From Tubulanus polymorphus (Eukaryota > Animalia > Nemertea): a DNA stretch of 64,000 nucleotides. The notes below the pieces were generated by a model. It was not told where the DNA came from. It made no database searches and saw only the letters and a program-made list of their open reading frames with translations. Every line of letters starts with the position of its first letter. Within the stretch, counting starts at the first letter, position 1. The position numbers were made by a program, and so were the translations under genes. Of the stretch, positions 1 through 34,763 are shown in pieces. The DNA lies in assembly GCF_964204645.1 (NCBI RefSeq), contig NC_134025.1, positions 14,446,001-14,510,000 on the forward strand, read 5' to 3'.

Positions 1-2484
1 AGCGGATGAACTCAGAAATACGTTCTATTCACTAAACATCGATGAGGCTACAAGCCAATCCACAAAAAAAGTTCTGTCGATCCTTGTCAGTTACTTTAGT
101 GAGAAGGAGAGACAAGTTGTTGTCAGACATTTGGCCTCATGTAATCTTATTTCTACCACTAGCGCATCTGTTTATAGTGCTTTGGTTGAGGTTTTCCAGC
201 AGCGTGATTTAGATTATAACCGATTAATGTCTGTCCTCCTCGACAGCTGTAACGTCATGAGAGGTAGTAAAACTGGCTTGGAGAAGTTAATAAAGGATAA
301 TTTGGCCCAGCATTTGCTTGACATCGACGGTGATTCGATACATCACACTCACAACGCCGCGAAACATTTCACAAAAGAATTTGATGGATTCATAGAGAAA
401 TTGATAACCGATATTGCAAGTGATTTGCATTTTTCTAAGGACGTAGAAAACTGGCTCCAAATTATCCTTGATCTCTTAGGCATTGGGTTTTCGATGCCCG
501 AGCGGTACGTCGGAACCCGATGGCTATCGGTCCATGATGCGGCGTCAGACCTTATTCGCAAAATCGATGGATATACTCTGCTGTACTATGGATTTATACA
601 GAAAGACAAAATCGTGTATTTGGCTCTATGTGTTGACATATATCGCAAATTTAACTTGTCTGAACCCACGAAAGATGAGATCAAAAAAATCTATGTTGCT
701 GCTGCCGCCAAATGGAAAAATCTGACAGCGGAAGGAAAAGAAAGAAAGCTACGAATTATCGATAAACTCATCATTCAGCGTAAAAAGCTTAAGCTTTATG
801 TGCATTTTTACACGGCGGTATTGCCAGTTCTAAAAAGATATGTACTCTTATTCCAAACTGTTGAAGAGCCATGTGTCCACAAGCTCAATGATGAGCAATG
901 TCAATTATTCAGGGATTTCATTTCCCTTTGTGTTAAACCATCTGCAATTCCTGAATCGGATCGAAAGTTGTCTTCTCTGATAATCTCAGAAAACCTCCTG
1001 CCAACCACTGAGATGTTCATAGGCGAATCTGCATCCCAAATAATTGCGGGGGAAAATAAATCATCCCAGTTTGTCAAAGACTTTCATGATCGTGTCGAGA
1101 GGGCCTATCTCAATACCGCCCAGTACCTCGCTAAAAAAATGCCTATCGACAATAAACTTCTCCGGTATATCTCGGCAATAGACCCAAAATGCCAGCGACA
1201 TGAAACGGCACTGAAATATATGAAAAAACTCCCACAATTAGTCGTCAATGTTCTGGCTAATGAAACGGAGATCAACTGTTATAAATTAGAAGTGCATAAA
1301 TTCCACTCGGATTCCAGTCTGCCAGCAGCAGTTGATAAAGATGGAAAGCAAGTTAGAATCGATTCCTGGTGGGCTGCTGTACATGATTTGGGCAAATATC
1401 CATACCTCTGTCGCATGGTATTTGCTTTACTTAGCTGTTTCAGTTGCCCAGTTGTCGAGAGCTCGTTTAGCATTATGGGCGAAATTCTGAACAGCACAAC
1501 CAATAGACTTCATGTCAAATCTTTCAGCGCAATCCAGAGTGTGAAATACGGATTAGGCAAAACGTCAGCTGTAGACTTTTTCAAAAGAGAAGATATTCTT
1601 CATGACCCTGTGTGTCCAAATCTCGTTAAAAATATGAACACTGCAGCTAAACGATACAAGGATGAATTGCAGAGTGAAAAAGATAAGAAAGCGGCTCGTA
1701 TGGAGGAACTTCAGGCTAAAGAGGTTAAGAAAGTTTCAAAACGCAAAGCCCGCGAACAGTGCATCTCAGCTGCAAAGAAAGCCCGAGAGGCACATGTATC
1801 TGCTATGCGTGCAAAACAACGACAAGCTAAAAGACATAAGCAGATGGAACTTGTAAGACTATTAAAAAAGAAGTAATCTCTGGCTTGTCCACTATTGGAA
1901 AAACATTTATGTGTTTTGTTAAATAAAATGATGCCGACTGACTGTACTGACTATGTACATGTAGTATGTTTAGATTGGTAATGATGTGTACATGTGTTTT
2001 ATAGAATATTTTTCCAAACCTTACTTCGTTAGAAAATTCATAAGATAACCCACTGTTCTATTTAAGTTTTTTTTATGGAAATCTAGCTTGTTGTGATATC
2101 AGTTTATTAAAAATTAGTGCTTTAATGATGCATGCTGGAAAATAAAGTCTAATTCAATTATCTATTGCGTGGGCAAGTGATCGTCGCTTTCAAGAAGATT
2201 GATCAATGTGGGATTCGAACCTACTAGTTACATTATAGTTGTCTCTGCATCAATTATGTCCCTGCCGTCTTGGAACTAGCAGTGTGTTGTGTAAAACATG
2301 GACGATGTTGTTTGATTTTTTGGCTTTGCTGAGTGAAATTTCAATCGGAAAACTGCTGAAAAACGATCTGAGATGATGTGAAAATCAAAAATTTTCTGGG
2401 GGAGGGCCCCCGGACCCCCCGTAATTACTTCGCGCCTACGGCGCTCGTTTCCGCCTTTTCAATAATGGTCTGTTATCATCCCTG
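1..2484 (+). mobile_element. hAT-superfamily DNA transposon (right part), inserted into the pPolB gene of Polinton copy 1
   Basis: Carries a hAT transposase ORF. Ends in ...GTTATCATCCCTG (reverse complement CAGGGATGATAAC, Ac-like TIR). The next base starts GTTTATAAAATCTGAAG, identical to copy 2 pPolB at 27590. Confidence 0.85.
2..1876 (+). CDS. hAT family DDE transposase (5'-partial; frame open from window start)
   Basis: Frame 2 reads YSLNIDEATS (first catalytic D), LLDSCNVMRG (second D), TRWLS (RW motif), SWW and VVESSFS (dimerisation domain, catalytic E); basic C-terminal tail. Confidence 0.88.
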   Translation, partial: ADELRNTFYSLNIDEATSQSTKKVLSILVSYFSEKERQVVVRHLASCNLISTTSASVYSALVEVFQQRDLDYNRLMSVLLDSCNVMRGSKTGLEKLIKDNLAQHLLDIDGDSIHHTHNAAKHFTKEFDGFIEKLITDIASDLHFSKDVENWLQIILDLLGIGFSMPERYVGTRWLSVHDAASDLIRKIDGYTLLYYGFIQKDKIVYLALCVDIYRKFNLSEPTKDEIKKIYVAAAAKWKNLTAEGKERKLRIIDKLIIQRKKLKLYVHFYTAVLPVLKRYVLLFQTVEEPCVHKLNDEQCQLFRDFISLCVKPSAIPESDRKLSSLIISENLLPTTEMFIGESASQIIAGENKSSQFVKDFHDRVERAYLNTAQYLAKKMPIDNKLLRYISAIDPKCQRHETALKYMKKLPQLVVNVLANETEINCYKLEVHKFHSDSSLPAAVDKDGKQVRIDSWWAAVHDLGKYPYLCRMVFALLSCFSCPVVESSFSIMGEILNSTTNRLHVKSFSAIQSVKYGLGKTSAVDFFKREDILHDPVCPNLVKNMNTAAKRYKDELQSEKDKKAARMEELQAKEVKKVSKRKAREQCISAAKKAREAHVSAMRAKQRQAKRHKQMELVRLLKKK

Positions 2485-5400
2485 GTTTATAAAATCTGAA
2501 GATAAACCAATATATAATATAAATTCTCATTCACAACATATTATATATAAACAACATATAGATGATAAATTAGATAAATGTTATAATGAAGTAAAAACTA
2601 AAATAGAAGAGAAATATTTTGAAGGATCTGGTTTAATATTTGATGAAATAATATTTATGACTTTACATGTTTATAACACAAAATATAATAAGTTAACTAA
2701 ATCAAAACCAATTGATGAAAATAATGTATCATATTATAAAGAACGAGATATTGAAGCATCGAGTTATATTAAACTACCATTTAAAACTAATGCTGTTATA
2801 AATGTACAAAATGAAGATGATAAATGTTTTCTATGGGCTATAATAAGTTGTTTACATCCTGCAACTTATAATATTTGTAGATTAACTCATTATAAACCAT
2901 TTGAAAATAATTATAAGATAGATAAGTATCCTGTTATAATTAAAAACATCCCAAAAATAGAAAGAGATAATAATATAAAGATAAATGTATTTGATTTAAT
3001 CAAATTACCAAATACAAAAGGTAACAATATAAAACATTATACATTAGAACCTTTATATCTATCAAAAGATTATGATTCAAACGATGTTATAGATATACTA
3101 TATTATGAGAATCATTATATGTGGATTAAACAAATCGACTTATTTTTTAAATCAGAAAATGATCACCATAAAATATATCTTTGTAGAAAATGTTTACATA
3201 AATTCAGTAATGAAAGTACATTATTAAATCATAAACAATTATGTGAAAATCATGATTATTGTAAATTAGTTTTACCAAATGAAAAGGATAAAATATTAGA
3301 ATTCAAAAAATATGATTACAAAAATAAAGTACCATTTGTAATATATGGAGATTTTGAATCATTAAATAAAGAACTAACTGATCAAGATAGAAAAGAAATA
3401 TATTATAAGAGAAAGAAATTAAATTCTAATGAAAATGATTATTCTGAAGAACCACCAAAAACAAATACTATTAAAAAGATTCATCAATCAGCTGCTGCTT
3501 TCGGGTTATATATAAAATCTGATTATCCAGAACTAATTGAAAGTGAATATTATGATTATAGAAATGAAAATGTTATCAATCATTTTTGTGACTTATTAAT
3601 TGAATATGAAATAAGATTTAGTAAATTATTGAATACAAATATAGAAATTATAATGACAGAAGAAGATAAAGAAGCATTTGCGTTTGCAGATAAATGTTAT
3701 TATTGTGAAAAGATATTTAATTATAAAGATAAAAAAGTAAGAGACCATGATCATTTGAACGGAAAGTTTAGAGGCGCTGCACATGAGAATTGTAACTTAC
3801 AAGCTAAGAAAATTAATTTTGTACCAGTTATATTTCATAATCTATCAGGATATGATGCACATTTATTCATCAAACAGTTATGCCATAAAATAGAAGAAAT
3901 TAATAATGAAATAGAAAGATTAAATTCAAATAGATCAAAAGATAAAATACCAACTTATAAATTTAGAATGTTAGCTAAAACATCTGAGAATTATATATCA
4001 TTCCAATTTGGGTGTTTAAGATTTATAGATTCATATAGATTTTTAAATAGTTCATTAGATAACTTATCAAAATCATTAGTTGATGATGAATTAAAGATAT
4101 TAAAAGAATATTACCCAAATAATGATGATTTCCAATTAATGAGATATAAAGGCGCAATTCCATATTCTTTCTATAAAAATCATAATGATTTTAACATAAC
4201 TGAATTATTGAAAGATGATGAATTAAAAAATGAATATGTTAAAGATGAAGTATATAATAGAACATTGAATATTTGGAATCATTTCAAAATAGAAAATCAT
4301 GGGCAATTAGTAGATTTATATTTAAAATCAGATGTATTATTATTAACCGATATATTCGAAAGGTTTAGAGATGTAAACCTAAAATATTTCAATATTGATC
4401 CATGTCATTGTTATTCATCACCAGGATTAACATGGGATTGTGGATTAAAATTTACAGATATAAAAATGGATTTGTTAACAAATATAGATCAATTACTATT
4501 ATTTGAAAAGTCTATAAGAGGAGGTGTTTCAGGTGTATAAGGGGATAGATATTTCAATGTAAATGATAACCCTGGATATAAGTTATTATATATAGATGCA
4601 AATAATCTATATGGTTGGGCAATGATGGAACCACAACCTTATGGAGTATTTGAATTAACTGAAGTTTTACAGAATGAAAATAATGATAAATTTGATTGGA
4701 AGAAAAGAATTCTAGATATTGCAGATGATTCAGATACTGGTTACTTTTTTGTTGTAGATTTAGAATATCCTGAACACATTAAATTTAAATCTAGAAATCT
4801 AGCATACTGTCCAGAACATAAAACTGTAACACATGAAGAATTATCAAATTACCAAAAAAGAATTAAACCCGAAAATCATATTCATACAGAAAAGTTAATG
4901 GTAACTCAAGAAGATAAATATAATTATGTAGTACATTATAGAATGTTAAAGTTTTATTTGAATCAAGGAATGATTCTAAAAAAAGTACATAGATATATTT
5001 CATTCAGCCAATCTAAGTGGTTAGAAAAATATATAGATTTTAACACCAAACAGAGAACTGAAGCTAAAACTGATTTCGAGAAAGATTTCTTCAAGTTAAT
5101 GAACAATGCATTCTATGGTAAGACTTGTGAAAATATTAGAAATAGAAATGATATTGAGTTAGTTAGTAATGGTAAAAGAATTAGACATTTACAATCATAT
5201 CCTAAGTTCATTGGTAACAGAATATTTGATGAAAATTTAGCCGCAGTTAAAATGAGAAGAACATCAATGAAATTTAATAAACCAATCTATGTTGGCGCTT
5301 CAGTTTTAGAATTATCAAAATTACTAATGTATGAATTCTATTATAATGTATTACAACCACTTTTTGGAGAAAAACATATAGAAATATTATATTTTGATAC

Positions 5401-5929
5401 TGACAGTTACATATTAAAGATAAAAACTGATAACATAACTGATGATTTAAAAACATTAAAACATCATTTTGATTTCAGTAATTATCCTAAAAATCATGAA
5501 TTGTTTAGCAATGATAATAAAAAAGTTCCAGGGAAGTTTAAGGATGAATTAGGTGGTGAAGAAATGATTGAATTCATCGGTATTAGATCTAAAATGTATT
5601 CATATAAAACTAATGAACATGAAGCTAAAAAGTTAAAAGGAATAACCAAAAGTGTAGTAGAAAAGAATATTCATTTCAAAGATTACATCAATTGTATATT
5701 CAATGAAGAAGTTAGAAAACATAAAATGAGATGTTTAAGATCTGAAGATCGTGAAATGTTTATTGAAGAAATTGAAAAGATAAGTCTAAACCCATTTGAT
5801 GATAAAAGATATATTTTAGATGATGGAATTCATACAGTTGCTTATGGTTGCAATTTAGATGAATACTTAAAATTTAAAAGAGAAGAAACAAAAGAGAACG
5901 AGATAATGAAAAGAATTCTAACGTGTTAA
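2485..5929 (+). pseudogene. Protein-primed family B DNA polymerase (pPolB), 5'-truncated, premature stop at 4538-4540
   Basis: ExoI YGDFES, ExoII FHNLSGYD, ExoIII YLKSDV, motif A YIDANNLYG, motif B KLMNNAFYGK, motif C YFDTDS. TTA>TAA relative to copy 2. Confidence 0.93.
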
Positions 5930-5958
5930 TCAAATTTTGATAAAAATATGTATTATAA

Positions 5959-6363
5959 ATGGAGAGTAAACAAGCGCACAGTGAGAACAACAAATCATTT
6001 CTAGATAGAATAAAAGATACTACAAATGTAAAATCTGTAGATTATAAATTCAAAAAGTTAACAGAATTAACAATCCATAAGAAATATTTAATTACAAATA
6101 TTGATACAGTTACTAATAACTATAGAGATAAATTAGTTATACACTTAGAATATGAAGGATTAAAAGGAAATACATATAAATTCAGAACATATTTACCAGA
6201 TAGATTTCATAGATTATCAAGTGATGATCTAGAAGAATTATGTTCTGGTGATTTCTATTTCGTATACAAAGGTAAGAATGAAAAAGGGCACCATGAAATA
6301 GATTTCGAAAAGAAAATATGTAAAATAAATGGCGGAATTAAAAGAATACAGAATATTTGTTGA
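5959..6363 (+). CDS. Small conserved Polinton protein, possibly OB-fold ssDNA-binding (3' end frameshifted relative to copy 2)
   Basis: FKKLTEL...YLPDRF...FVYKGK pattern; homologues at 31075 and 22844. Function inferred from position next to pPolB. Confidence 0.55.
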   Translation: MESKQAHSENNKSFLDRIKDTTNVKSVDYKFKKLTELTIHKKYLITNIDTVTNNYRDKLVIHLEYEGLKGNTYKFRTYLPDRFHRLSSDDLEELCSGDFYFVYKGKNEKGHHEIDFEKKICKINGGIKRIQNIC

Positions 6364-8243
6364 TTCAAGAAAACTTACTAATTATAAATCTCATAATTTA
6401 CTAGTACAATTAGATAGAGAATTCAAGAATTGTGTAGATTTAAGTTTATGTAATTCTTTTTATAATATATCGAATAAAACTATTGAACATAGAGCCTTTT
6501 TAGTTTTTAATAGACACATAGATTCATGGGTCTATATATATTTAAAACCGGGGTTATATAATTTAGATACATTAGCACAAGAAATTAATAGAAAAGCGTG
6601 GCACAAATTAGGTAGTAGTTCTGGGTTTAGTATTAGATTTTTAAAAAGTGATAGTTCTGATAGAATAAAGATAAGGTTGTCTAATAGTGAAAAACATAAA
6701 TTTATGGTAAAAAAACCTATAGCTAAACTGTTAGGAATTCTTCCAGATAGATCTTTTACAAATATTGATGCTGCTACACCAAACTTAATACCTTACACGC
6801 ATTTTTTGACGCCTTATAAAACGTTACCATTATGAAACCTAAACAATGCTAACCATTCAGCGTCATTTTACAAACGACAGCCGTAAATCGATGTGCAAAT
6901 CGTCACAGGTTTAGCTATCTGGCAAGCTATCTGGCAAAATATTATTGACATAGATGTAGAATGGCTTCCTGTGATTATATAATGACCTATATTTGAACGT
7001 CGAAATGTTATATTGCATTGAATATCATTAGAAGACGTATTGTAATAGTAAAGGATGTATGATTATATCAGAAGCGGCAGGCATAAATAGAAATGATAAG
7101 TAAATCGGATTATTCGGTTAAATGGCGGATGTATTCACGATGCGGAAGTCTGATATAAAAGTCAGACCCTGACGTGGGCATGCCGGTGGAATGACGAAGC
7201 TATCTACGATGTGTGTAGGGCAAGCGTGAATTTCATCAGCGGCTACAAGCGGTCAATATGAAAACATATAATTTCAATATTCAAACGTTTTAGAAAATAT
7301 GTTTGATATTAGGAGTATGCAAGTTTCGTGAGATTAGCAATTTATAATAGCATAGCTGTCATATACGGCTCCGTGTCCTCTGATGGCATGTGTATTAGGT
7401 GACAATTCAATTCAATTCTTTATTGATCCTTATTACATTGAAATTCCGGGATAAAATGCCCAAATTCAATAAATACAAATTTTAAAATAAATTAATACAA
7501 CATACATGACACACGGGTAATTCATACAGAACAACATAAGCATGTTATTTTAAATGACAATGTCTACTTCAACCCACCCAGACTCAAGACTCTAGGATAT
7601 CGAGTGACAGCCAAACCCGTGGCCCGGGCCGGCTGGCTAGGCCACACGATATGCTCGAAGTCATGATGAAGCAGACATCAGAAGAGCTCTTTTTTCTTCA
7701 TCCATGGAGGCAATGAAGTTGCAGACCAGCTTAGAGGCATAAGTAAATGAAGTCGGTCGCAAGTTCGCGATCAATTATTGAGAATTTTCAATAAAAATAT
7801 TTAAACCACTACTAGAGTCGAAGACCTGTATCATCTACCCAATCGCCAAATCTCATCATTCCCCAAATTTCTTAAAACTTCGATTTCAAATTTGCAATTC
7901 CACATTAGCTTAGCCCAGAAATTCTACATTTTTCCCCAGGCGTCAAATAATTTTCTAAAATTAATTTTCTTGTTATATTTATTGCAATTTAATCGATCCT
8001 ACAAAAACATTCGAAGCAACTAAAGATATAACTTGTAATTCTGGTTTACTAAACATTTTACCATTGAAGAATGTTAAAGAATTTGGAACGCAAATAAATT
8101 ATAATTTAACAGAATGTGATTTCAAACCATGCATTCCTCGTTTTAATAATTTTAGATTAGAAATTAGAAATCACAATGGATATTTAATTGATTTGAATAA
8201 CTTTCCTGTAATTTATGAATTAGTTATAAGATGTAAAGAGTAA
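6329..8243 (+). pseudogene. Minor capsid protein (penton-like), split by a ~1.17-kb insertion
   Basis: N-terminal part 6329-6804. Frame resumes ~7974 as YIYCNLIDP...LLNILP...FNNFRLEIRNHNGYLIDLNNFPVIYELVI, the typical single-jelly-roll minor capsid C-terminus; contiguous in copy 3 (49156-49638). Confidence 0.75.
6805..7973. mobile_element. Non-autonomous insertion with Helentron/HINE-like structure, containing a probable LINE 3' tail fragment
   Basis: Absent from copies 2 and 3. Inserted in a T-run. Subterminal inverted repeats TTTGACGCCT (6805) / AGGCGTCAAA (7938), then hairpin TAATTTT-CT-AAAATTA and CTTGT end. (AATTC)3-TTTATT tail near 7404. Confidence 0.6.
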
Positions 8244-8263
8244 TTTTTTTCACTATATAAATG
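8242..8263 (+). promoter_or_regulatory. Poxvirus-late-like promoter motif AATTTTTTT-N6/7-TAAATG (first of seven consecutive copies; others before 8603, 8849, 9291, 9742, 11140, 12624)
   Basis: Same T-run, 6-7 nt spacer and TAAATG at each start codon; conserved in divergent copy 3. Confidence 0.65.
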
Positions 8264-8602
8264 AATATAACTGTTGGACCGAGTATATGTTTTGGGTTTG
8301 ATTTTAAACATGGTAAAGAAATGAGAATTAAACTAAATGATGTAATTACTGATATAAAAAGTAAATCACTTAACAATGCATCAATGATTAATAAAGAAAA
8401 TTATAATATAGAAAAAGTAATTGATTTAATTAAATCACCTTTAGAATATTATGAATTAAATGAAGATGGAATTATTGATGATATTAAAAACATATTAACC
8501 AAAATATATGATAATCATAAAAGTAGTAATGAAATAAATGTTGAAATAATCATAAATAAGTTAACTAAATATTTTGATGATAGTAATTTTTTTGATAAAT
8601 AA
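8261..8602 (+). CDS. Polinton hypothetical protein (113 aa)
   Basis: Intact ORF with promoter motif; decayed homologue at ~48785-49140 (-). Confidence 0.7.
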   Translation: MNITVGPSICFGFDFKHGKEMRIKLNDVITDIKSKSLNNASMINKENYNIEKVIDLIKSPLEYYELNEDGIIDDIKNILTKIYDNHKSSNEINVEIIINKLTKYFDDSNFFDK

Positions 8603-8824
8603 ATGAGTGATAATAAGTGGATAATAACTGGATTATATAATGGAGCATTACTATCAGTTGGAACTGTTGGTTATTCAATGGTATTAAAAAAAGTATTTAA
8701 AATGGGAAGTGTTAATGTTGATAGATTTGATATAAATGATATTTCAAAATTAACATTAGCAGTTACTTTATCTAATTTAACTATTGATTATTTGGAAAAA
8801 CAAAAATATATTCCTCCCATATAA
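8603..8824 (+). CDS. Small hydrophobic (putative membrane) protein, 73 aa
   Basis: Two hydrophobic/amphipathic segments; homologue at ~48563-48783 (-). Confidence 0.72.
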   Translation: MSDNKWIITGLYNGALLSVGTVGYSMVLKKVFKMGSVNVDRFDINDISKLTLAVTLSNLTIDYLEKQKYIPPI

Positions 8825-8848
8825 ATGCATAATTTTTTTGCTAAATAA

Positions 8849-9271
8849 ATGGCTTCTGCAATTATAACTATTATAGGATCGGCAATTGTTAACGCTTTAG
8901 CATTTACTGGTGGCGGTTATTTATTTAAGCATATTGATAAAAATAGTTCATTAGGAGAACAAAGAAGACATAACTTAGCATTAGAGAAATACAATAAAGC
9001 AGCAGAAGAATATAGAGAAAAAAGACAAAACTATATGGATTACATCAATAAAGAATTATATGATCAGAAGATTTCACATAGAGATTTTCAATCAGTTGAT
9101 GATGCAATGAGTTTATATAACGCAGTAACAAATAAAGAAAAATTACATCTATACAAACCTAAATTATCAGATTATTATACCCCAAGTAATGAACAACAGA
9201 AATATGAAATAATTTGGATTTTAGGTGGAACAGTTATTGTTATATTTGTGGCGTATAAGTTTACTAATTAG
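8849..9271 (+). CDS. Membrane protein with N-terminal Gly/Ala-rich hydrophobic helix, coiled coil and C-terminal TM, 140 aa
   Basis: MASAIITIIGSAIVNALAFTGGGYLF ... IIWILGGTVIVIFVAY; homologue at ~48117-48536 (-). Confidence 0.75.
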   Translation: MASAIITIIGSAIVNALAFTGGGYLFKHIDKNSSLGEQRRHNLALEKYNKAAEEYREKRQNYMDYINKELYDQKISHRDFQSVDDAMSLYNAVTNKEKLHLYKPKLSDYYTPSNEQQKYEIIWILGGTVIVIFVAYKFTN

Positions 9272-9290
9272 TAATTTTTTTGCTAAATAA

Positions 9291-9725
9291 ATGGAAGATA
9301 AAGTTGATAATATTGATATTATTCCTCATGATATAAATAAAACTAAATTAAAAACATATTTAGAAAAACAAATATTAGAATTTGAAAGTGACTTAAAAGT
9401 TAAAAAGAAAAAATATTTAAAAAGTAAAATTATATATTATCTTATTATCAGTGGTTCGGTTACAATTAGTTCTGTAATAACATTTCTAGCAATATTCAGT
9501 CCATAAAAACCTTTAGCTATATCAATTGGTGTATTAGGATTAAGTTCAAGTGTTTTAACTGGTATAAGTTCAAAATTAAATATAAAAAGTAATAAAGAAA
9601 AAATTAAAACTAATATAAAAGAAATTAATAAATTGAAGAAAACACTAGATTATATAATAAGTTTAAATGGTCATATAACAGTTGAAGAACAAGATAAATT
9701 ATTAAAAGAATTAATAAATTATTAA
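9291..9725 (+). pseudogene. Two-TM membrane protein with flanking coiled coils (premature stop at 9504-9506)
   Basis: TM1 IIYYLIISGSVTISSVITFLAIF; reading continues in frame after the stop as PLAISIGVLGLSSSVLTGIS. Copy 3 homologue has TTA at this codon. Confidence 0.65.
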
Positions 9726-9741
9726 TTTTTTAATTAAATAA

Positions 9742-11123
9742 ATGGTAGATAGTTTTCCAAAAGCTTTCCAATATAATAAATCAATTAAATATAATATTCC
9801 AGCAATAGATTTTAATAAAAATATTACATATAGAAATGAAGTTTTAGATTCATTAACTAATTTAGAAATTTATGTTACTGAAACTAATAATTTTAATGCA
9901 AAGATGGAAAATATATTTCATGTATATTTAATTAATTTTAAAAAATTGAAAGATGAAAAACAATGGTTATTAAAATCTAATATGAAGTATTGGCAGAACC
10001 AATTAAATTTTGCTGTTTATTGTGCAACAACAGGTTGTGGAATTAGTTGGAATGATCATTTGAATAATTCTAAATATAAATTAATTCAAAGGTTATTTAG
10101 ATTTCATACATACTTTCAAATCAGAATAATATTAAATGAATTAGAGTGCGCTTTACCAGGATCTAGGTATTTTAAAGAATTAGATAATAATATTAATTTA
10201 TCAAAGTTTTATAAAATTTGTAATGAATTAAATATAGATATAAATAATTCTGATTTTAGAACAAAAATTGGAACAATAAGATCACTTCCTTGCCCTAAAA
10301 AGATTGCAGAATATTGTGCACTTCCCATACCATCTAATAGTTTGTATAATATCTATAGTAATAAATTAGGTTATGGTAAAATAGAAACTAAGGATTTAGA
10401 AACATTAAATTTCAATAAATTACCGACATTTTATGATAATTTAAAACAAGAAAACAATAATGGTTGGGTTTATTTCATTTTAGAAAATAATGAAGGTTTT
10501 ACAAAATCAGGTATACAAAGAATAGATCAATCTATTAGAACTTATTTGATATGTATTTTAGGTGCGCAAGTTGAAACAAGATCCCCAATAATTGGAAATT
10601 GAAATACATCATTTGATACACAGAAACAATTCAAAGTATTATTTGAAGATTCAATTCATAATGATAAAAATAGATCGATTCCAGAAAACATTGTAAGATA
10701 TCAAAATTATTTAGATAAATCACATATTAGATTAAATTATTGTATAGGCCCTAATCTATTAATTATTTCTAATGATTTAGTACTAAAGATGGGAAATATA
10801 ATTGGTTATAATAATCTAATTAAAACTGCAACAATAAATAATTCATTTGGATTGAATGATATAAATAAAAAGATAATTAATGCTCCAAAATTAATGGAAG
10901 GTGAAAAAAATAAAAAACATATTCAATCAACAGAAACTAAAACTAAGAATATTAAATTAAATAATGATTCTAAAATAAAAGGTTACAATACATCAGAAGA
11001 TATAAAAACTGATAATATTCAACATGAAATAATTAAACTAAATGATGATAATAAATCCCATGAAAATTAGCTATAACTTGTATAGGAATTGTAATCGGAG
11101 GAATATTAAATTTTAAATTTTAA
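9742..11123 (+). pseudogene. Conserved Polinton protein (WQNQLNFAVYCATTGCGIS motif) with C-terminal hydrophobic anchor; nonsense/frameshift lesions
   Basis: ORFs 9742-10602 and 10789-11070 correspond to one gene in copy 2 (32097-33086 plus tail); tail IAITCIGIVIGGI. Confidence 0.7.
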
Positions 11124-11139
11124 TTTTTTTATTATGTAA

Positions 11140-12603
11140 ATGGATGTAGAAGGTGGAGAAGATAATGAAATGGACGGCATGGGAAATAATAATGAAGGAT
11201 ATATTGATGATGATTATAATGATGCAGAAACTAATATTGATAATGATGATGAATCAGCATATAATTCTAATTTAGCAGATAGTGGTTCTAAAGGTCAATC
11301 AACAGATGAATTTGATAGAAGAACTAGATCGAGAATAAATCCTGAAAATGAAAATCAAGGTTTATCGAGACGAGATTTAGAAAATAAAGAATTTATATAT
11401 AAGTTCCAACGTGCATTTGAAAGATCTGTATATAATATAAATTACAGAGGTGCCAGATTTTTAGTAGAAGATTTAAAATATTTAGATGGTGAATATTATT
11501 ATAAATTGAAAGATGATTATTATATTAATATCACTAATCAAAGGACAAGACTAATTAAAATATTAGCAAAATCAACTTTGAGTGATTTAGAACCAGATAA
11601 AATTAAGAGAATAAGTAATAGTAATGAAATAACTGATGTTACACAAGAAGAAAGAGATGATAATATAAGAGTATTTAGTCAAAGAATTGATGACTTATTT
11701 AAAATAATCGATGATAATCCAGAAACAGAAACAACTTCTGAACAGAATAAAACTTCCAAAACTAGTAAACTTAAATCAAATAAAGTTCCAATTGAAAAAC
11801 TTTTACCGAATGGATTAATTGATGCAACAGATCAACAATTAGAAGATTTGAATAATATATTTTCTGATGAAGCAATTAGAGAAATTAAAAGTATAAGACT
11901 TGCATCTGATAAAATTGCGCATGATAAAAGTATAAGAGATTTAAAAATTAGAACTTTAGAAGATGAATTATTTAAATCAAGAAAAGAATCGGAACCACTA
12001 AAATTAGATAGAGATAATAAAGTTATTGAAGAAATCGAATTTAAAAAAAGAAATGCGTATTTAGAAAAAGAAAAAGATGATTTAGTATATAACATAGAAT
12101 TATAAAAAGAAGAAATTAAATTGTTATTTAAATCATATGATTATAATATTAATAGATTAAAAGTTATTTTTAAAGATTTGTTGATAAAACCAGATTCTAA
12201 AATATCATTGAAGGATAGAATAAAATTATTATTAAAGTTAGAAGGAATAACAATTCTTTCAATTCTAACAGCTGTAACTATGTTATTTACAACAATTGGT
12301 TTAGCAATATCAAATGCTTTGAAATCTACTCCTACTCCCAATAAACCGGATAAACCCCCGAATGATAATAATTCTATACAAGATAAAGTTAAAGATGGTT
12401 TAAAGAAATTAGCAAAATATTTATGGGAACTATCTAAAAAATCTGCTGCAGCATTGCCAGGAGTTATTGCATCAATTGTTGGTTTTATATTGAAATCTGC
12501 AGGAAACATTATTAACTTTGCTGCTGAAAATATTATTTTATTTTTAATTACAGTTGTAAGTGCAATTATTTTTGGGTTAGTAAACATGATAAAAAATAAA
12601 TAA
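11140..12603 (+). pseudogene. Acidic N-terminus / long coiled-coil protein with C-terminal hydrophobic helices (in-frame stop at 12103-12105)
   Basis: ORFs 11140-12105 and 12121-12603 are in the same frame and are contiguous in copy 2 (33432-34742). Confidence 0.72.
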
Positions 12604-12623
12604 TTAATTTTTTTGTTAAATAA

Positions 12624-13871
12624 ATGAGTGGGAGTTATATCAATCCTTCTAAGAATCATAGAATATCTAATGCTATTAAAGCAGAAAGATCACATCATAT
12701 AATTACTCATAACCCTTCTAATATTAATCCCGATGAAACTTTATATGTTAGAATTCCTCGATTAACACAAAATACTTTTTATGTTCCATATAGTATTTAT
12801 TTATCAGCCGATATAAAAGTAATCGGTAATAATAATAATTATGTTGTTGATAATGTTGGAAGATATTTGATTAAAAAATTAACAATAAAGATTGGTCCAG
12901 AAACAGTTTTCTCATCAGAAGATTATAATTTATTTATGCATTATAAAGATTTATGGTTAACTAAAGAAAATAGAAATAATATGATATTTCAAGGAATCAA
13001 ATCAGAAAACAAAAATAAATTAAGATCAGAAGCACATAATGCAATATTAACTAATTCTGTAGATAAATTGATAAAAAGTATATATGGAAGCAAATATAAA
13101 ATTCCATTAGACTTTGAATTGATAAATAACAATGCACCTTTATATAAATACGCAATTCAAGAAGATGTTATATTCGAAATAACATTTGCTCCTGTAAATG
13201 AAATTGTATTATCTAGCGTTAATAAAGATATGAGTTATAAATTATCGAATATATGTTTAGAATATGATACAGTAACTGATGAAAATATTGCAAGTATAAT
13301 TCAAACTCAATACAATCAAGGATTTTCATTATTATATGATTATATTGATAAATTTAAAACTGTAACTATTAATGCAAATGATGAAATTATCAATGAGAAT
13401 ATTAACTTCCCAAGAAGATCTATTAAAGGTATATTAATATTTTTTACCATTGCAACATATACTTATGGCGCAATAAATGTTGATAATTATTATAATCCTG
13501 AAATAACAAAAGTAGAAATAACTATCGAAGGAATAGCAAATAAAATATTTTGTCAAGGAATGAGAATGATTGATCAATGGCCAGAAATTAGAAAACATTT
13601 TATGAATGAAAAAGTGAAATCATCTGAAAATTGTAACATTAATCAAATTGATTATTATACCGGTAATAAATATGCATTATGGTTAGATTTTAGAACAACA
13701 GAGGATAATTCATTACATGGTTCTGGAAAAAAATTACAAAACACTAAAGATGGAATACAATTATTCATGACAAAGAATAAAGGAATCAAAAATTTTTAAA
13801 TGCACATTTATATTATATCTGACGCGCAATTAAATATTGTAAATTCTCAATTAAATAGTGTTATGTATTAA
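12624..13871 (+). CDS. Major capsid protein (double jelly-roll type), frameshift near the C-terminus
   Basis: ~415-aa beta-rich ORF conserved in all three copies (ITHNPSNINPDETLYVRIP, NICLEYD, INENINFPRRSIKGIL, ALWLDFR); position and size fit a Polinton MCP. Confidence 0.8.
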
Positions 13872-13903
13872 AATTTTAACTTTAATAAAAATTTATATAA
13901 TAA

Positions 13904-14788
13904 ATGGAAGGAGGTAAAGTATATAAACATATTCCATACATCGATACACATGAAAATAATGATGGTTTATATTATGTAATACCTTGTAATATAGCTTTGA
14001 TATTTGATCCTATTTTCAAAATTTATAAAACTAAACTAATAGAAATCGATAATAATAAAAGTGAAGTTGTTGATAATTTAAGTAATGTAATACCTTCTAC
14101 ATCTAATAATGTAATACCTTCTACATCTAATAATGTAATACCTACTACATCTAATAATGTAATACCTACTACATCTAATAATGTAATACCTTCTACATCT
14201 AATAATGTAATACCTTCTACATCTAATAATGTAATACCTTCTACATCTAATAATGAAATAATATTAAATGTTAGTGAAAATAGAAATTATTGTGGATATT
14301 GTAAAAGTGAATTTTCAAACGCTACATCAAATTGGAATAAACATATGAATACAAGGGTACATATAAATAATGTTATAGAACGTGTTGGTTTAAAAGAATT
14401 TATAGAACACCCATTTAGATATGTTACAAAGTTTGTTTCAAATCAAAAAGTAAATGGTGAAAAAATATATGAAGATTTATTATTAGCAACACCTAATAAA
14501 GATGAATTAGATCTAACCGATGCTAATGAAATATTAGGATCAAACACTGTAAATGAAATATTAGGAGCAAACACTAATAAAGATTCTATGAAACATAAAG
14601 TAGAAAATAATGATAAATTTGATTGGATGAATAAGCATAACAATGAAACAACTATTGATGATGCGGTAAAAAAGGTGAAGAATAAGTATAAAAATAATAG
14701 AGAATTTGAAGAAGAAAATTCGGTAGAGAATTTAAATAAATTGTTAGGGTCTGATAGTGAATTGGAGAGTGATGATAAAAGTGATTAA
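13904..14788 (+). CDS. Zinc-finger protein with VIPSTSNN repeats and acidic tail
   Basis: CGYC...HMNTRVH C2H2/U1-like finger; seven 8-aa repeats. Confidence 0.7.
   Translation: MEGGKVYKHIPYIDTHENNDGLYYVIPCNIALIFDPIFKIYKTKLIEIDNNKSEVVDNLSNVIPSTSNNVIPSTSNNVIPTTSNNVIPTTSNNVIPSTSNNVIPSTSNNVIPSTSNNEIILNVSENRNYCGYCKSEFSNATSNWNKHMNTRVHINNVIERVGLKEFIEHPFRYVTKFVSNQKVNGEKIYEDLLLATPNKDELDLTDANEILGSNTVNEILGANTNKDSMKHKVENNDKFDWMNKHNNETTIDDAVKKVKNKYKNNREFEEENSVENLNKLLGSDSELESDDKSD
14087..14254 (+). repeat. 24-bp coding minisatellite x7 (GTAATACCTWCTACATCTAATAAT)
   Basis: Directly visible; x5 in copy 2 (36241-36360). Confidence 0.95.
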
Positions 14789-15187
14789 GATATCAATTAT
14801 ATTTAACACAAATAATAATATTAGTTGAAAATTGTATAAAATAATAGTAAATAAAAAAGGGGGTTTTAAGTATTTAAGGCATCTAATAGGGTATCTAATA
14901 AATATCTAATACATATCTAATACATATTATTTGAAAATACCTTAAATTATATTTCTTTTTTAAATTTATATTGAAACCTCAGTAATTATAAATAACCTTT
15001 ATTATTTTCAAACTTATTCATATATTAGTTGAAAAAATAAAAATAAATTGGTTGAAAATTGTATAAATAATATTTATTTTAAAAAAGGGGGTTTTAAGTA
15101 TTTAAGGTATCTAATAGGTTATCAGGTATTAGGGTATCTAATGGGGTATCAGGTATTAGGGTATCTAATACATAGGTATACAAATAG

Positions 15188-15758
15188 TTATTTTATAAAT
15201 TTATATTCATAGGGAAATTGTAATCTCAGTAATAATTTTGAACCTTTATTATTCTTTAATTTATTCATATATTCATCATGTAATTCAGTAGGTATAATTT
15301 GATTTTCTTCCAATGATTGTTGCATAGATTTTTTATCTTTGTTATAAAATAAAACTAGAAATCTTATATTCTCCCTAAAGTCTTTAACAATTGAATTATA
15401 TTTTTGATTTAAAACCCATGTTGTTATCCCAAAATGTCTTCCAGAGAAAGCTAAATAACATAACTCACTTTCTCTCACTTTTGAGTCATGTAAATTAGCG
15501 CAATCATCTACAATGAATAATGTATTTGATCCTTTATAAGTATCAATTGCTATTTTAATACAATTATCTAAATTTCGTTTTACTATTTTAGGATCTAATA
15601 TAATTCATTTCATAAGTAGGACAAAATAATATTATATTATCAAAATGATTCTTATAAATAGTTTCTAACAAATCTAATATGAAATGTGTTTTACCACAAT
15701 TGGTTACACCAGTAACTAACATATTATGCGGTTCGAATATAAATAAATCTTTATTCAT
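15188..15758 (-). pseudogene. A32-like (FtsK-HerA) packaging ATPase with internal deletion
   Basis: Walker A GVTNCGKT, Walker B FIVDD, GRH motif; intact in copy 2. Confidence 0.88.
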
Positions 15759-16802
15759 TTATTCTTTTAATTTTACTAGATAAAATCCATTCATTAAATT
15801 TATCATCATATCCTTTATATTTCACCAAAGAATACTTTTTTCCTTTAAGAGTTTTTGTTTTCAATACTTTTTCTATTTTGTATTTCATCTGGATTTGGTA
15901 CAAGTGATAATTCTTGTTCATAGAAATAACCTAATATTTCTTCATCTTTTAAATCTTCTAGTTTATATACAAATGGTTTAGTTAATATTATCTTTTTAAT
16001 CTTGAATATTTCTTCAGTAAAATTTGGAGTATAACCTTTATAAAATGTTTTTCTATATTTAGATATTCTAACGTGTTGTCCTATTTTAAATTTAGGTTCG
16101 CCGAAATCATGTGTAACAAATGCTCCATATAAATTATTCCAAACTATTTCCGAATTATCTTCTTTTCTAGCTTGTATAGGTTTCATATTTATAGAACTAT
16201 GTTTAGAATTATTATAACCTTTCACTAAATCATCTAACACATCGATATATTTATATGTTTCATTAGCAGTAAAATATTTCCACATTCTAGTTTTCAATGT
16301 TTTATTAAATCTTTCTATTATAGATGCTTTTTCATCTGAGTGTGTTGAAAAATAGTCTACATCGTTATCAGATAATAGTTTTTTAAAATGTTTGTTATAA
16401 AATTCCTTACCTTCATCAAATTGTATCTTATCTGGAATAGCTTCTTTAAATATTGATTTAAAAGCATTTGTCACTTCTGTATCGACTGAATATGTCTATA
16501 ACATTCAGTATCCAGAAATATCCTTTGTTGTATTCCTCTAAGTTCTTCATGTCAATTAAATCTGCTTGCCATTGTTGATCGATATATGAAACCATAACTT
16601 TTCTTATTAAATAAGTTTTATCCATTTTCTTGTGGATTTGATATGTTGGTTGATTTTGTAACCATGATTTCAATTCACTATATTTTACATTGCCATTTTC
16701 CTTATCAGATTTAATTTTACCCCATAATTCTGTAACGTTAGAATATGATACTTCACTTTCTGGGTTATAATATAAATCTCTTAAATATTGTTCTTTTTTC
16801 AT
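15751..16802 (-). pseudogene. Retroviral-like (rve) integrase with C-terminal chromodomain, frameshifted
   Basis: QWQADLID, IQFDEGKEF, IERFNKTLK (DDE); C-terminus KIEKVLK...LVKYKGYDDKFNEWI. Confidence 0.9.
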
Positions 16803-16808
16803 CTTATT

Positions 16809-17133
16809 TTAATCCATTAATAATAATTTAGATTTAGTTTCAATGGCTTTATGATTTGATTTATTTTCTGGTATAATAGGTTTATTGTCATTGGAATCAT
16901 CTTTATCATCATATTTGAATTTTGAATGTAATATATAATTTATAATTAATTCCAGCATTGGAAGAATCAGATGGATTATTACTTGAATCAATATCAGATA
17001 AAGTCTGTGATTCATTTATATTAGTTAATTCCTTTTTCTTAGCTTTTTTTAATTCTGAAGATCTTTTACCTAATTCTCTTGCCCATTTAATTTGTTTCTC
17101 GGATCTAGCCTTTTTCTTAACTCCATCACTCAT
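16809..17133 (-). pseudogene. Small basic protein (TM segment deleted relative to copy 2)
   Basis: MSDGVKKKARSEKQIKWARELGK; copy 2 version (39038-39328) has TM YITIGLVTVIILSGVIY. Confidence 0.6.
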
Positions 17134-17728
17134 TTATTTTAGTTAATTTTTGTTCTGATTCATTTTCTGTTTCGCTGTTTGGTTGTAGTACATCTGTTTC
17201 GTTCTTACCTGATTTATATTCCATAGGCTTGATATTCGAAAATGTTATGACGCCAGTAGAAATTAATGTCATAACAGATCCTAATTGAAATGAAGCATAA
17301 CCAACCCATTTTTGTAATTCAGTCATAACTAAGTAGTCATTTTTCAAATCACTATATAATTTATTTTCATCATCAATTGGTATTAACTGGTTACATAACT
17401 TAGAATAACATTTGACAATACCATCTGAAATAGAATCATTTATTCGGGCTAATCTTGCCTCTTCATAAATCTTAAAATATTTTATTACTTTATCCGGTTT
17501 CATAGAGTCTAGTTCTTGAAAAGTAATGGTCTTAGTTAAAAATTGTTTAGATTTGCCGCCAGCAATTAGTAACTCAAGATGGTGTTTACAATATAAATAG
17601 TATTCATAATCAATATTGTTATTAACTTGAATAGAATTAGAAACAACTGGATCCTTATTATCACTTATACCTAAATCATCTAATGTTTTTTCAATATCAA
17701 TACTATTCTTATTAGATTTCTTTGACAT
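17126..17728 (-). CDS. Polinton hypothetical protein (200 aa) with a hydrophobic segment
   Basis: Intact ORF with TAAATG start; disrupted homologue at 39321-39922. Confidence 0.7.
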   Translation of the reverse strand: MSKKSNKNSIDIEKTLDDLGISDNKDPVVSNSIQVNNNIDYEYYLYCKHHLELLIAGGKSKQFLTKTITFQELDSMKPDKVIKYFKIYEEARLARINDSISDGIVKCYSKLCNQLIPIDDENKLYSDLKNDYLVMTELQKWVGYASFQLGSVMTLISTGVITFSNIKPMEYKSGKNETDVLQPNSETENESEQKLTKINE

Positions 17729-18030
17729 TTATATTAGAGAAATTTAATAAGAAAAATATTATAAGTATTATAAAATGATACTAGATAGTTAAAGTTAAAG
17801 AATTCTAGTATTGACTACTGATACTAGCTATTTGAATTTAAAGAATTTCTATTTGAATCTATTCAAAATATAAAGTATTCTCTTTTTGAAAAGAAAATAT
17901 TAAAAATATAATAGAATTCACTTGCTAGTTGAAGTTATTGTTTTTTTAATATATTTTATTTGAATTCTATTTGATATCTCACTACTTTTGTTTATCTATT
18001 AGGAGCAGTAATCATAACTGTCCAGATAAG

Positions 18031-18711
18031 TCATTTCGGATCCTTGATATCAAATTCCTCAACGTATTGTTCATTATTTGGATCATTGTTCCATTGATCA
18101 ATAAATTTCTTTGCCTTTGTTAACTGTTCTGAATATAACTGTAAATCTAGTTTATTAGATTTAATTATGTTTTCCTTCTTTTCTAAAGGTCTTAAATTTT
18201 TCCAGTTCCATATTAGCTTCTTATTATAATCATCACTCATGTCAAATTTAGAAATCGGCAACACATAATCAATATGAAAGTATTCACCATAATTATCTAT
18301 ATTCATTTTATCATCGAATTGATATATTATCCATGATTTAAGAAATTTATCTGAACAACCCAATAAATTAGATAGTGTTTCTGAATGTGTTTCTTTGTTG
18401 AATAATTGTGTTAATCTAGATCTTAAGCATTGTTTCAATCTAAAATTAAGATCTGTTTGATATCTTTCTCTCATATATTCTGTCATATAATCATTATAAG
18501 CTTCTCTATTATCTTCTCGATATTGTTTGGTATATAGTTTAAAACAAGTTTTACAACAATATTGAAAACCATCTTTGCTAATCTTACGCTTATTAAATTC
18601 TGTTATAGCTAATTTATCTAATTCACATTTAGAACACTTCTTGTAGTATATATTTATAACACCACCAGTGTTATTTGTAATATTGATAATTTGTGGTTGT
18701 TCTGGTTCCAT
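18031..18711 (-). CDS. HNH endonuclease of the type common in large DNA viruses (first His changed to Tyr in this copy)
   Basis: CSKC...CKTC zinc ribbon; HID(Y)VLP...NWKNLRPLEKKENIIKSNK. Confidence 0.8.
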   Translation of the reverse strand: MEPEQPQIINITNNTGGVINIYYKKCSKCELDKLAITEFNKRKISKDGFQYCCKTCFKLYTKQYREDNREAYNDYMTEYMRERYQTDLNFRLKQCLRSRLTQLFNKETHSETLSNLLGCSDKFLKSWIIYQFDDKMNIDNYGEYFHIDYVLPISKFDMSDDYNKKLIWNWKNLRPLEKKENIIKSNKLDLQLYSEQLTKAKKFIDQWNNDPNNEQYVEEFDIKDPK

Positions 18712-18854
18712 TTATTATATGTATTTTTTACTAAATTGGTTAATATTTTAGAATCCTCTTCCATTTCTTCGACCAACGTCGTCCTTTTTCATTCCTCGTT
18801 GCTTTTGATAAGTTGTTTCGATTCCTTGATATTTAAATAATACCACTGGGAAAA

Positions 18855-19300
18855 AGCGCGCATTCATGCGCGCTTTTGCTTAATGCGCATGCGCTAATCA
18901 TAATTATATATTCATTATGTAAATTCTGTAAAATAGGAACAACCGAACACAGAAAATATCAAAACGTGTTCGCATTAAGCAAAACCGCGCATTCGTGGGC
19001 GCTTTTGATCAATGAGCATGCGCTAATCATAATTATATATAATTATGTAAATAGAAACAACCGACATGAAATATCTAAACTTGTTCGCATTAGGCAAACC
19101 GCGCATTCATGCGCGCTTTTGCTTAATGCGCATGCGTTAATCATAATTATATATTCATTATGTAAATTCTGTAAAATAGAAACAACCGACATGAAATATC
19201 TAAATCATACCACTGAGCAAACCGCGCATTCGTGCGCGCTTTTGATCAATGCGCATGCGCTAATCCTAATTATATATTCATTCTGAATAGAAACGACCGA
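18855..19300. repeat. Four ~114-129-bp tandem units with GCGC-rich cores (TGCGCATGCG)
   Basis: Units start near 18857, 18986, 19100 and 19223; absent from copy 2. Confidence 0.9.
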
Positions 19301-20019
19301 ACATAAAAATTCACCAATCAGATTTACACAATACATTATACAAGTTGTTCGGCCATTTCTTCCAATACATCATTTGATTTCTATAAATACAATTAATAAT
19401 TACAAACATTTTTTCAATTGCTGGTAAATATTTAACTACATCAACAAATGTTAAACTTAATCATTGGAGTCTTAATGTTTTTGAAATTCTTATATAGTTT
19501 CTTCGTCGATCTTTTGGCGATTCTTGTGTTTCTTGTGCTAATTTCTATTGGTTCGATATCCATTGCTGTTGATTCCTCAGTCAGAAAGAGTATCTTGAGT
19601 TTCTCTATCACTTCTTGATGCGTATGGCGTTTTATTAATCTAAAAGATATTAGCGGCAACTCTAGCCATCTAAAATATATACTAAATACACTTAAATATA
19701 TCTAAAGGTTTCATATTTAATAGCCCTAATAACTACAAAAAACAGTACTTACATTTAGATTTAGAATTGTAAACTATAAACTCCTAATTTCGTTTCGAGA
19801 GATAGAATATCCTGAGCGTAATGTTACAGCGCCTGTTCATTTCTTGCCACGTCATCTGGTTCCGGTTCTAGAGTGTTCTACACGTTTGCAATATTATGAC
19901 TCATATGTCTCGGCGTCATAGTAACAGCTGTAACAGCTGTGAATTTTAGATTTATTCAATAGTTCATTACATGAAATGTATATAGGCTCAAATAAAATCA
20001 TGTTCTAGTTTAAACAGCT

Positions 20020-20581
20020 ATGCATTATTTCAATCACACTTAACTAACACTTTTAATGTTTAAAAATCTAACTCACACAAATATGAATATTGAAATAATG
20101 TTGTAAATATATACTTTTATATTGAATAATCTGTCAATTTAAATGTTATTCATTTATATGATTATTTTAAGAGTAATAGGGGTAATGGGCTTTCAGGTTA
20201 AAGGTTGAACGGTCGAGCTCATTAAAAACAAAACATTAAAAGTAATTTAAAACTATAATATATTTTCATAACCGTGTGTATTTCAGTTGAATAATAGAAT
20301 AATTATCATTATTAAAATATATTTGATTATATGAATTTGTGTATTGTAAATAAATCAATTGGTCGCGGAGCGGAGCGGCAGCGAAGTGGAGCGACCAATT
20401 GATTTAATACAATATGCTTTTAAAATTAAAATTATTAATATCTTAGAATAAATATTTAGTTATAATATAAAATACACACGGTTATGAAAATATATTATAG
20501 TTTTAAATTACTTTTAATGTTTTGTTTTTAATGAGCTCGACCGTTCGACCTTTGATTTGAAAGCCCATTACCCCTATTACT
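20020..20581. repeat. Right terminal inverted repeat of copy 1, including ~410-bp fold-back hairpin (20172-20581)
   Basis: Matches 42400-42960 directly and 26580-26960 inverted; arms 20172-20283 and 20470-20581 are reverse complements with 4 mismatches. Confidence 0.92.
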
Positions 20582-26579: not shown

Positions 26580-26989
26580 TTGGTCGCTCCACTTCGCTAC
26601 CGCTCCGCTCCGCGACCAATTGATTTATTTACAATACACAAATTCATATAATCAAATATATTTTAATAATAATTATTATTCTATTATTCAACTGAAATAC
26701 ACACGGTTATGAAAATATATTATAGTTTTAAATTACTTTTAATATTTGTTTTTAATGAACTCGACCGTTCAACCTTTAACCTGAAAGCCCATTACCCCTA
26801 TTACTCTTAAAATAATCATATACATGAATAACATTTAAATTGACAGATTATTCAATATAAAAGTATATATTTACAACATTATTTCAATATTTATATTTGT
26901 ATGAGTTAGATTTTTAAACATTAAAAGTGTAAGTAAAGTGTGATTGAAATAATACATGATATAAATCATTGAACTTCTAAAATCAATTT
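26580..26989. repeat. Left TIR of copy 2 (outer hairpin arm missing)
   Basis: Reverse complement of ~42378-42775; begins at TTGGTCGCTCCACTTCGC. Confidence 0.9.
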
Positions 26990-27011
26990 TAATAAGAAAT
27001 TTAGTATTAAA

Positions 27012-31045: not shown

Positions 31046-31074
31046 TCAAATTTTAATAAAAATATGTTATTAAA

Positions 31075-31428
31075 ATGGAGAGTAAACAAGCGCACAGTGA
31101 GAACCACAAATTATTTCTAGATAGAATTAAAGATATCACAAATGTAAAATCTGTAGATTATAAATTCAAAAAGTTAACAGAATTAACAATTCATAAGAAA
31201 TATCTAATTACAAATATTGATACAGTTACTAATAACTATGGAGATAAATTAGTTATACACTTAGAATATGAAGGATTAAAAGGAAATACATATAAATTCA
31301 GAACATATTTACCAGATAGATTTCATAGATTATCAAGTGAAGATTTAGAAGAATTATGTTCTGGAGATTTCTATTTCGTATACAAAGGTAAGAATGAAAA
31401 AGGGCACCATGAAATAGATTTCGAATAA
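31075..31428 (+). CDS. Small conserved Polinton protein, possibly OB-fold ssDNA-binding (117 aa)
   Basis: Intact orthologue of 5959-6363. Confidence 0.6.
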   Translation: MESKQAHSENHKLFLDRIKDITNVKSVDYKFKKLTELTIHKKYLITNIDTVTNNYGDKLVIHLEYEGLKGNTYKFRTYLPDRFHRLSSEDLEELCSGDFYFVYKGKNEKGHHEIDFE

Positions 31429-31445
31429 GAAAATATGTAAAATAA

Positions 31446-33276: not shown

Positions 33277-33292
33277 TATTTTTATTATGTAA

Positions 33293-34742: not shown

Positions 34743-34763
34743 TTAATTTTATTTGTTAAATAA

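Follow-up and report, generated by a model that had tools for sequence, protein, structure and literature searches.

The 64-kb window analyzed here (the whole stretch of 64,000 nucleotides from contig NC_134025.1 of Tubulanus polymorphus) contains three decayed copies of one Polinton family embedded in host DNA, and most genes of this family start at a motif that resembles the late promoters of poxviruses. Copy 1 (2465-20581) lacks its left end and is interrupted at about 6836-7945 by non-element DNA. Copy 2 (26580-42960, + strand) has both terminal repeats, the left one cut at the center of its palindrome, and an internal deletion has removed the genes corresponding to 8261-9291. Copy 3 (about 44369-53543, - strand) shares about 87% identity with copy 1 across the motif genes. 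Most genes of the family have at least one copy broken by premature stops or frameshifts. The element is 22–25% GC and, judging from the partial copies, we infer a full length of roughly 19–20 kb. A DNA polymerase of family B (PolB), an rve integrase, an A32-type packaging ATPase, a double-jelly-roll capsid protein and terminal inverted repeats were all found; this gene content points to Polintons, with the capsid trees having been built without virophage capsids.

Both strands of the whole window were searched with the strict pattern AAT{6,7}N{6,7}TAAATG. On the + strand it occurred only at the ATGs at 8261, 8603, 8849, 9291, 9742, 11140 and 12624, which belong to seven consecutive genes of copy 1, and on the - strand only at 46234, 47645, 48783 and 49139, all in copy 3. 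The first copy 1 motif (8242..8263; AA-T7, a 7-nt spacer and TAAATG) precedes a gene of unassigned function (8261-8602). The next two head a 73-amino-acid conserved Polinton gene (motif 8585..8605, gene 8603-8824) and a 140-amino-acid conserved gene (motif 8831..8851, gene 8849-9271). These are followed by the genes at 9291-9722 (motif 9273..9293), 9742-11070 (motif 9724..9744), and 11140-12603 (motif 11122..11142), and the long apparent gaps within the run arise because these three carry premature stops. The 9742-11070 gene belongs to a family of about 440 amino acids, whose conserved 442-amino-acid protein gave a model with a pLDDT of 60.6 and no fold match. The last motif (12606..12626) heads the gene at 12624..13868, in which the open reading frame (ORF) stops early at 13799. 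Its product is predicted to be a double-jelly-roll major capsid protein (MCP), as the AlphaFold2 model (pLDDT 85.5) matched PBCV-1 Vp54 in Foldseek (E = 1.5e-10).

The seven strict matches in copy 1 (7946-20400) compare with a mean of 0.023 and a maximum of 1 in 300 block-wise dinucleotide shuffles. With a looser pattern applied to the element copies, the upstream T-run was seen at 13/28 start sites and at none of 87 TAAATG sites that were not gene starts. TAA precedes just 115 of the element's 1733 ATGs (6.6%). Of the 16 family gene starts, 14 read TAAATG, the exceptions being PolB (TAAAATG) and the integrase (TAAGATG). The upstream core can be T-rich or A-rich. Before a probable penton gene, copies 1 and 2 have an A-run where copy 3 has a T-run, and the integrase of one relative (L002) has the motif with a T-rich core. 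Comparing the divergence of motif and spacer across the three window copies gave no useful difference, which is to be expected of copies in decay.

A preliminary description of the window had named exactly these seven ATGs, had called the gene at 12624 the MCP and had noted TAAATG on most remaining genes, and all of this held, including for genes with an A-rich core. The same spacing had been described in copy 3 before five starts; it was found at 46234, 47645, 48783 and 49139 (given as about 49140), but the site before 49923 reads T7-N6-TAAAT-A-ATG. The description had also treated the motif as a mark of virion genes, and this restriction found no support. TAAATG stands on 14/16 genes, and the MCP is the only one of the seven with an identified virion role. 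Neither does the T-run mark virion genes, as the packaging ATPase has an A-rich core and the core type of the penton gene changes between copies.

Relatives of the element were collected by capsid alignment, taking the best 80 of 194 metagenomic loci. Conserved genes of unassigned function are common to the window element and most of these 80 relatives. Gene starts were drawn from 15 clustered gene families, using near-full-length ORFs with at least 30 bases upstream and dropping truncated ones; 70 of the 80 loci contributed. In quick capsid trees the loci with at least 50% capsid identity grouped with the window (SH-aLRT 93–97). Within this clade 43/46 starts read TAAATG, against 4/261 outside it. 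Composition does not account for this bias, because clade loci at 30–44% GC still had the motif at 20/22 starts and outgroup loci at no more than 38% GC had it at only 3/47. Three of the four outgroup TAAATG starts belong to two loci, L054 and L060. In L054, which has a long, unresolved branch outside the clade, the motif was present at 4/4 long ORFs. Together with L060 (1/1) it represents a second lineage, at 33% capsid identity, in which TAAATG with a T at -9/-10 was found at all five long ORFs checked. This lineage is possibly an independent switch to the motif, or else the ancestral state.

Other initiator-like sequences were seen in the outgroup. TAAAA adjoining the ATG exceeded shuffles in L022, L023, and L026 (9/11 starts) and in L017, L018, L020, and L030 (6/12), and TATA within 25 nt of the ATG did so in L015, L016, and L076 (8/12). 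These are perhaps the initiators of other types of helper, or just an A-rich Kozak context.

To calibrate the motif, 36 loci from poxviruses, surrounding the large RNA polymerase gene, were passed through the identical pipeline and a profile was averaged over 12 gene families, whose identities were inferred from gene order and size against a table in PMC11980589. TAAATG was rare at the starts of families in early positions (0/26, 0/20, 4/33, 0/36, and 0/35), and most late and intermediate families were rich in it, with one late-position family at 1/36. Counted from the T of TAAAT, the poxvirus profile has a T peak at -10/-9 in a core nearly free of G and C, an A peak just upstream and a free spacer. 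The T profile of the Polinton clade correlated with it at r = 0.83 at zero offset, falling to 0.52 and 0.58 when shifted by -1 and +1. A T at -9 was present in 48/52 unique clade starts compared with 35/113 non-start TAAATG sites, and a T at -9 or -10 in all 52. The window and three subclades, each compared separately with the poxvirus profile, gave r values of 0.62–0.74 (permutation p ≤ 0.003). Nearly all clade starts have TAAAT(G/A) on the start codon and, about 10 nt upstream, a T-containing A/T core followed by a free spacer. In vaccinia, late promoters are described as having TAAAT(G) run into the start codon, with conservation of a T some 10 nt upstream (PMC11980589), and reviews give a 5–7-bp spacer downstream of the T-rich core. 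We also considered a two-stage program of intermediate and late genes, which gained no support. The seven A-rich window starts fitted the intermediate profile (r = 0.21) no better than the late one (r = 0.26), and the core type switches between copies.

The bases around the start codon bear on whether the motif acts in transcription. Position -3 was T in 40/43 clade starts and a purine in 183/233 outgroup starts, and G at +4 was retained in 30/43 clade starts. A pyrimidine at -3 is a poor context for scanning ribosomes. In the clade this T would not reach the mRNA if initiation took place within the AAA and was followed by a slipped poly(A) leader. Slippage at TAAAT yields such a 5′ poly(A) leader in vaccinia, and a slipped leader is described for yeast linear elements as well (PMC6211774). 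Three divergent gene pairs, whose ATGs lie 19, 28, and 30 bp apart, have TAAATG on both genes, the T-run of one gene being the A-run of its partner.

On this evidence from sequence, we think it probable that the promoter of the Polinton genes is post-replicative and of poxvirus type, that a pox-like virus co-infecting the cytoplasm supplies the RNA polymerase that reads it, and that the element is a virophage-like provirus; cytoplasmic transcription, the helper and a hyperparasitic way of life would all go with this reading. The preliminary description had proposed a promoter of this type for a pox-like helper. Its promoter part has gained from the clade specificity, the AT-matched controls, the poxvirus register, the T at -3 and the divergent pairs, and its helper part is kept here in conditional form. 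The promoter-like motif is shared with the Poxviridae as a family, and it is the register, and not a particular helper, from which this is known. The pox-like virus would supply polymerase and late factors within its cytoplasmic factory, which the element DNA would have to reach and where it would replicate with its own PolB. Transcription would begin inside the AAA, slip and add a 5′ poly(A) leader, which would replace the T at -3 and give the adjacent AUG a good context. Each gene would then be a separate, leaderless transcript apart from its slipped A leader, and the T-run and the A-run would be variants of one promoter. Packaging would use the element's own capsid and re-integration its rve, as in Mavirus with CroV. 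For a wider version of this reading we see about an even chance. It holds that in a widespread animal Polinton clade poxvirus-type promoters replaced nuclear transcription by the host on essentially every gene, and that such a change came about more than once (L054/L060). Its members would then be integrated virophages of undescribed pox-like viruses of aquatic invertebrates and might serve as an inducible antiviral defense.

Several results weigh against this reading. In IMG/VR, two scans for RNA polymerase motifs and one by alignment returned 36, 0, and 37 loci, which had a chordopoxvirus-type gene order or 63–100% identity to the query; no invertebrate or environmental pox-like virus was among them, and no helper was found. 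PolB and the integrase, which would be needed first, lack the exact motif in the window family, and the element is multi-copy in its host, which requires many successful integrations. In corals, ordinary samples show expression of polintovirus genes, and the text available names no helper (PMC11131425). The calibration loci are chordopoxviruses only, and the start counts overstate their statistical weight because related loci are not independent. The motif in the unrelated-looking L054 and L060 fits repeated adaptation, but also easy convergence. AT-rich outgroup starts correlated with the full poxvirus profile at r = 0.37 (p = 0.075) and with a late-only profile at 0.63, and 34/44 of them have a T at -9/-10. 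Since these starts share it, a T-rich core alone is weak evidence, and the specificity of the clade lies in TAAATG combined with a near-invariant T. Coding strands of the clade contain fewer T5NT sequences than expected (9 found, 33 expected), but T5NV is depleted equally and we rejected T5NT depletion as evidence of the poxvirus early terminator.

The alternative that deserves most attention is a lineage-specific nuclear promoter, in which host RNA polymerase II with TATA-binding protein (TBP), or a factor encoded by the element, reads the A/T tract and starts at or just before TAAATG, the likeness to poxviruses being helper-free convergence. A/T tracts are where TBP naturally binds, several of the element's proteins lack an assigned function, and some outgroups have TATA or TAAAA beside the ATG. 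The expression of coral Polintons in normal samples would also suit a nuclear promoter. We nevertheless consider it unlikely, as divergent ATGs 19–30 bp apart leave no space for two arrangements of TATA, start site and untranslated region, the near-invariant T at -3 would make a poor scanning context if it were part of the mRNA, and in most outgroup elements this position has kept a Kozak-like purine. The same promoter chemistry could instead be read by a cytoplasmic polymerase that is not from a poxvirus, such as that of an egovirus or asfuvirus relative or of a linear virus-like element, or it could be the relic of a vanished helper. Yeast linear elements combine a TAAAN initiator with slippage (PMC6211774), egoviruses are described as the poxvirus sister group and as having swapped genes with polintons (10.1101/2024.03.23.586382), and the IMG/VR scans returned no invertebrate pox-like virus. 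TAAATG on the start codon with a T at -9/-10, in register with the Poxviridae, speaks for a poxvirus-type polymerase, and the initiator described for the late promoters of asfarviruses is TATA (PMC5294985); a non-poxvirus helper thus seems improbable to us.

A signal acting after transcription is less probable again. It could be stop-start reinitiation on a polycistronic RNA, a trans-splice acceptor or a poly(A) signal belonging to the gene upstream. In 28/57 starts the motif overlaps with AATAAA, the T-run often lies past the end of the upstream gene, and at 8602/8603 a stop abuts a start. But AATAAA is absent from the other 29/57 whilst TAAATG is fixed, AG occurs within the last 12 nt of only 5/57, the stop of the upstream gene is the TAA of the motif in only 1/24 tandem cases, and the motif also stands on divergent genes; together with the T at -3, these counts fit poorly with all three signals. 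In none of the groups did AATAAA inside genes depart from synonymous shuffles. An artefact of composition or of ORF calling would be natural to suspect in an element of such low GC content, where an in-frame TAA makes the following ATG the first. This we regard as scarcely credible given the shuffles, the non-start controls, the AT-matched outgroups and the clade members at 36–44% GC. Moreover, a scan of IMG/VR with the motif found no viral contig with more than two TAAATG starts among the 120 loci listed.

The poxvirus-type promoter and its proposed helper can be set beside known systems. Like the late and intermediate promoters of vaccinia, the motif has TAAAT(G) on the start codon, a T 9–10 nt upstream in a G/C-free core and a variable spacer, and can be used both ways in tight divergent pairs. 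Unlike them, it lies inside a Polinton without a detected polymerase and covers nearly all genes, with no early class detected. Mavirus and the EMALEs of Cafeteria share the late promoter motif TCTA of CroV (PMC8547959), and are likewise integrated elements with rve, PolB and capsid genes and a promoter of cytoplasmic large-virus type. They have a protist host, a Lavidaviridae capsid, a mimivirid helper and demonstrated reactivation, whereas the window element has an animal host, a Polinton-type capsid and a poxvirus-type promoter from whose sequence a helper is surmised. The polinton-like viruses AHEV_PLV1/2 and CBEV_PLV1 were co-sequenced from the occlusion bodies of entomopoxviruses, and the authors named them as the first hyperparasites of poxviruses (Barth et al., 2024; PMC11296320). 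They resemble our element in being Polinton-related, proposed poxvirus hyperparasites in animals, and are set apart from it by their description, which gives no rve and an adenain protease. Neither "promoter" nor "TAAAT" occurs in the main text of that paper, the supplements lying outside this check. Polintons/Mavericks (adintoviruses, Polintoviricetes) share PolB, rve, the A32 ATPase, the double-jelly-roll capsid and terminal inverted repeats; the clade-wide TAAATG starts, the lack of a detected protease and a 410-bp palindromic end distinguish the window element. Yeast pGKL1/2 are linear DNAs of PolB type with a TAAAN initiator and 5′ poly(A) leaders, but they have genes for an RNA polymerase and a capping enzyme of their own, lack a capsid and do not integrate. 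In the accessible text of the adintovirus paper, the coral polintovirus paper (PMC11131425) and a 2026 polisuvirus preprint, a search for the term "promoter" returned nothing. We found no report of poxvirus-type promoters in animal Polintons in a literature search without most subscription journals. The logic is already known from Mavirus and CroV, and its use by animal Polintons appears unreported.

A clade-wide, positionally exact promoter of poxvirus type makes it testable whether animal Polintons depend as viruses on a helper or live as autonomous elements of the nucleus; we know of no animal Polinton with a demonstrated life cycle. If our reading is correct, endogenous virophages of the Mavirus type extend from protists to animals, pox-like viruses are predicted in hosts with few known, and the type of promoter predicts the helper of each Polinton lineage. 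Reading gene starts would then be a simple computational screen for the helper of each Polinton.

The copy 1 PolB (2465..5929, + strand), of the protein-primed type with an endonuclease VII domain, is interrupted and lacks its 5′ part; a copy 2 piece matched DNA_pol_B_2 (E = 3e-10), tblastn matched the window PolB to that of L025, and the TAAAATG start lies at 27012 (+ strand) in copy 2. A 134-amino-acid gene and the 5′ part of the probable penton gene, split at about 6836-7945, occupy 5959..6835 (+ strand), both with TAAATG and an A-rich core; the penton candidate had no match in PDB or Pfam. Downstream of the MCP lies a clade-restricted gene (13904..14788, + strand), also with TAAATG and an A-rich core. 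The packaging ATPase (15191..15758, - strand; Pox_A32, E = 5.3e-12) is frameshifted in copy 1, starts at TAAATG and has an open frame in copy 2 at 37276-37887. The integrase (15757..16802, - strand; PF00665, E = 1.8e-9) is frameshifted as well. Three further genes on the - strand (16909..18711; ATGs at 17133, 17728, and 18711) all start at TAAATG, the last being HNH/endonuclease VII-like. No protease was matched among the ORFs scanned, and no RNA polymerase or capping gene was detected in the element, though several of its small genes are unassigned. Poxvirus proteins, including the large RNA polymerase subunit, had no tblastn match in the window or in L001-L081. Scans with the MCP found no relative in IMG/VR and one fragment in GTDB.

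Among the relatives, clade member L001 has a deoxynucleoside kinase gene (10340-10981, - strand) with the same T-run and TAAATG start. A poxvirus link through this kinase was rejected, as beyond its own group it has only generic large-virus-like relatives at 27–38%. In the outgroup locus L024 an AAA_30/AAA_19 helicase-like gene (9967-13596, - strand) takes the usual PolB position. Hairpins, which are possible terminators, lie between convergent genes in L002 (3720-3837) and L004 (3163-3275), and the window has only weak ones there.

The element is flanked by a hAT transposase (227-1876) with named relatives at 30–47% identity. These come from sea urchins, molluscs, a ribbon worm, sea spiders, spiders and fish, mostly aquatic invertebrates, and, all being animals, they are the one line of support for an animal host. 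At the right end of copy 1 the terminal inverted repeat spans 20020..20581 and includes a 410-bp imperfect palindrome (20172-20581) that ends in ACT. Contigs from public runs contain many element variants, and their depth falls sharply after 20581. The same palindrome ends copy 2 (42555-42960) with different flanks, and the terminal repeats of copy 2 (26580-27017 and 42350-42776) are 93% identical. None of the three copies retains both true ends, beside which a 6-bp target-site duplication would be read. In the palindrome about 114 bp are almost perfectly paired, followed by an AT-rich mismatched part and a GC-rich apex. Folded up, it could make a self-priming hairpin that recalls the ends of poxviruses or parvoviruses. 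Terminal palindromes are also described for Halocafeteria virophages and polinton-like viruses, mostly without protein-primed PolB (10.64898/2026.07.28.741278).

In copy 1, imperfect tandem repeats of about 120–130 bp with GC-rich palindromic cores lie at 18850-19290, past the last gene and before the terminal repeat. A copy-variable region beside the right terminal repeat (19700-19800 and 41350-41430, both - strand) keeps a shared block of about 70 bp, in which TAAATG is followed by an immediate stop and overlaps a splice-donor-like GTAAGT; the ORFs downstream of it lack TAAATG. This region is possibly a nuclear, spliced transcription unit.

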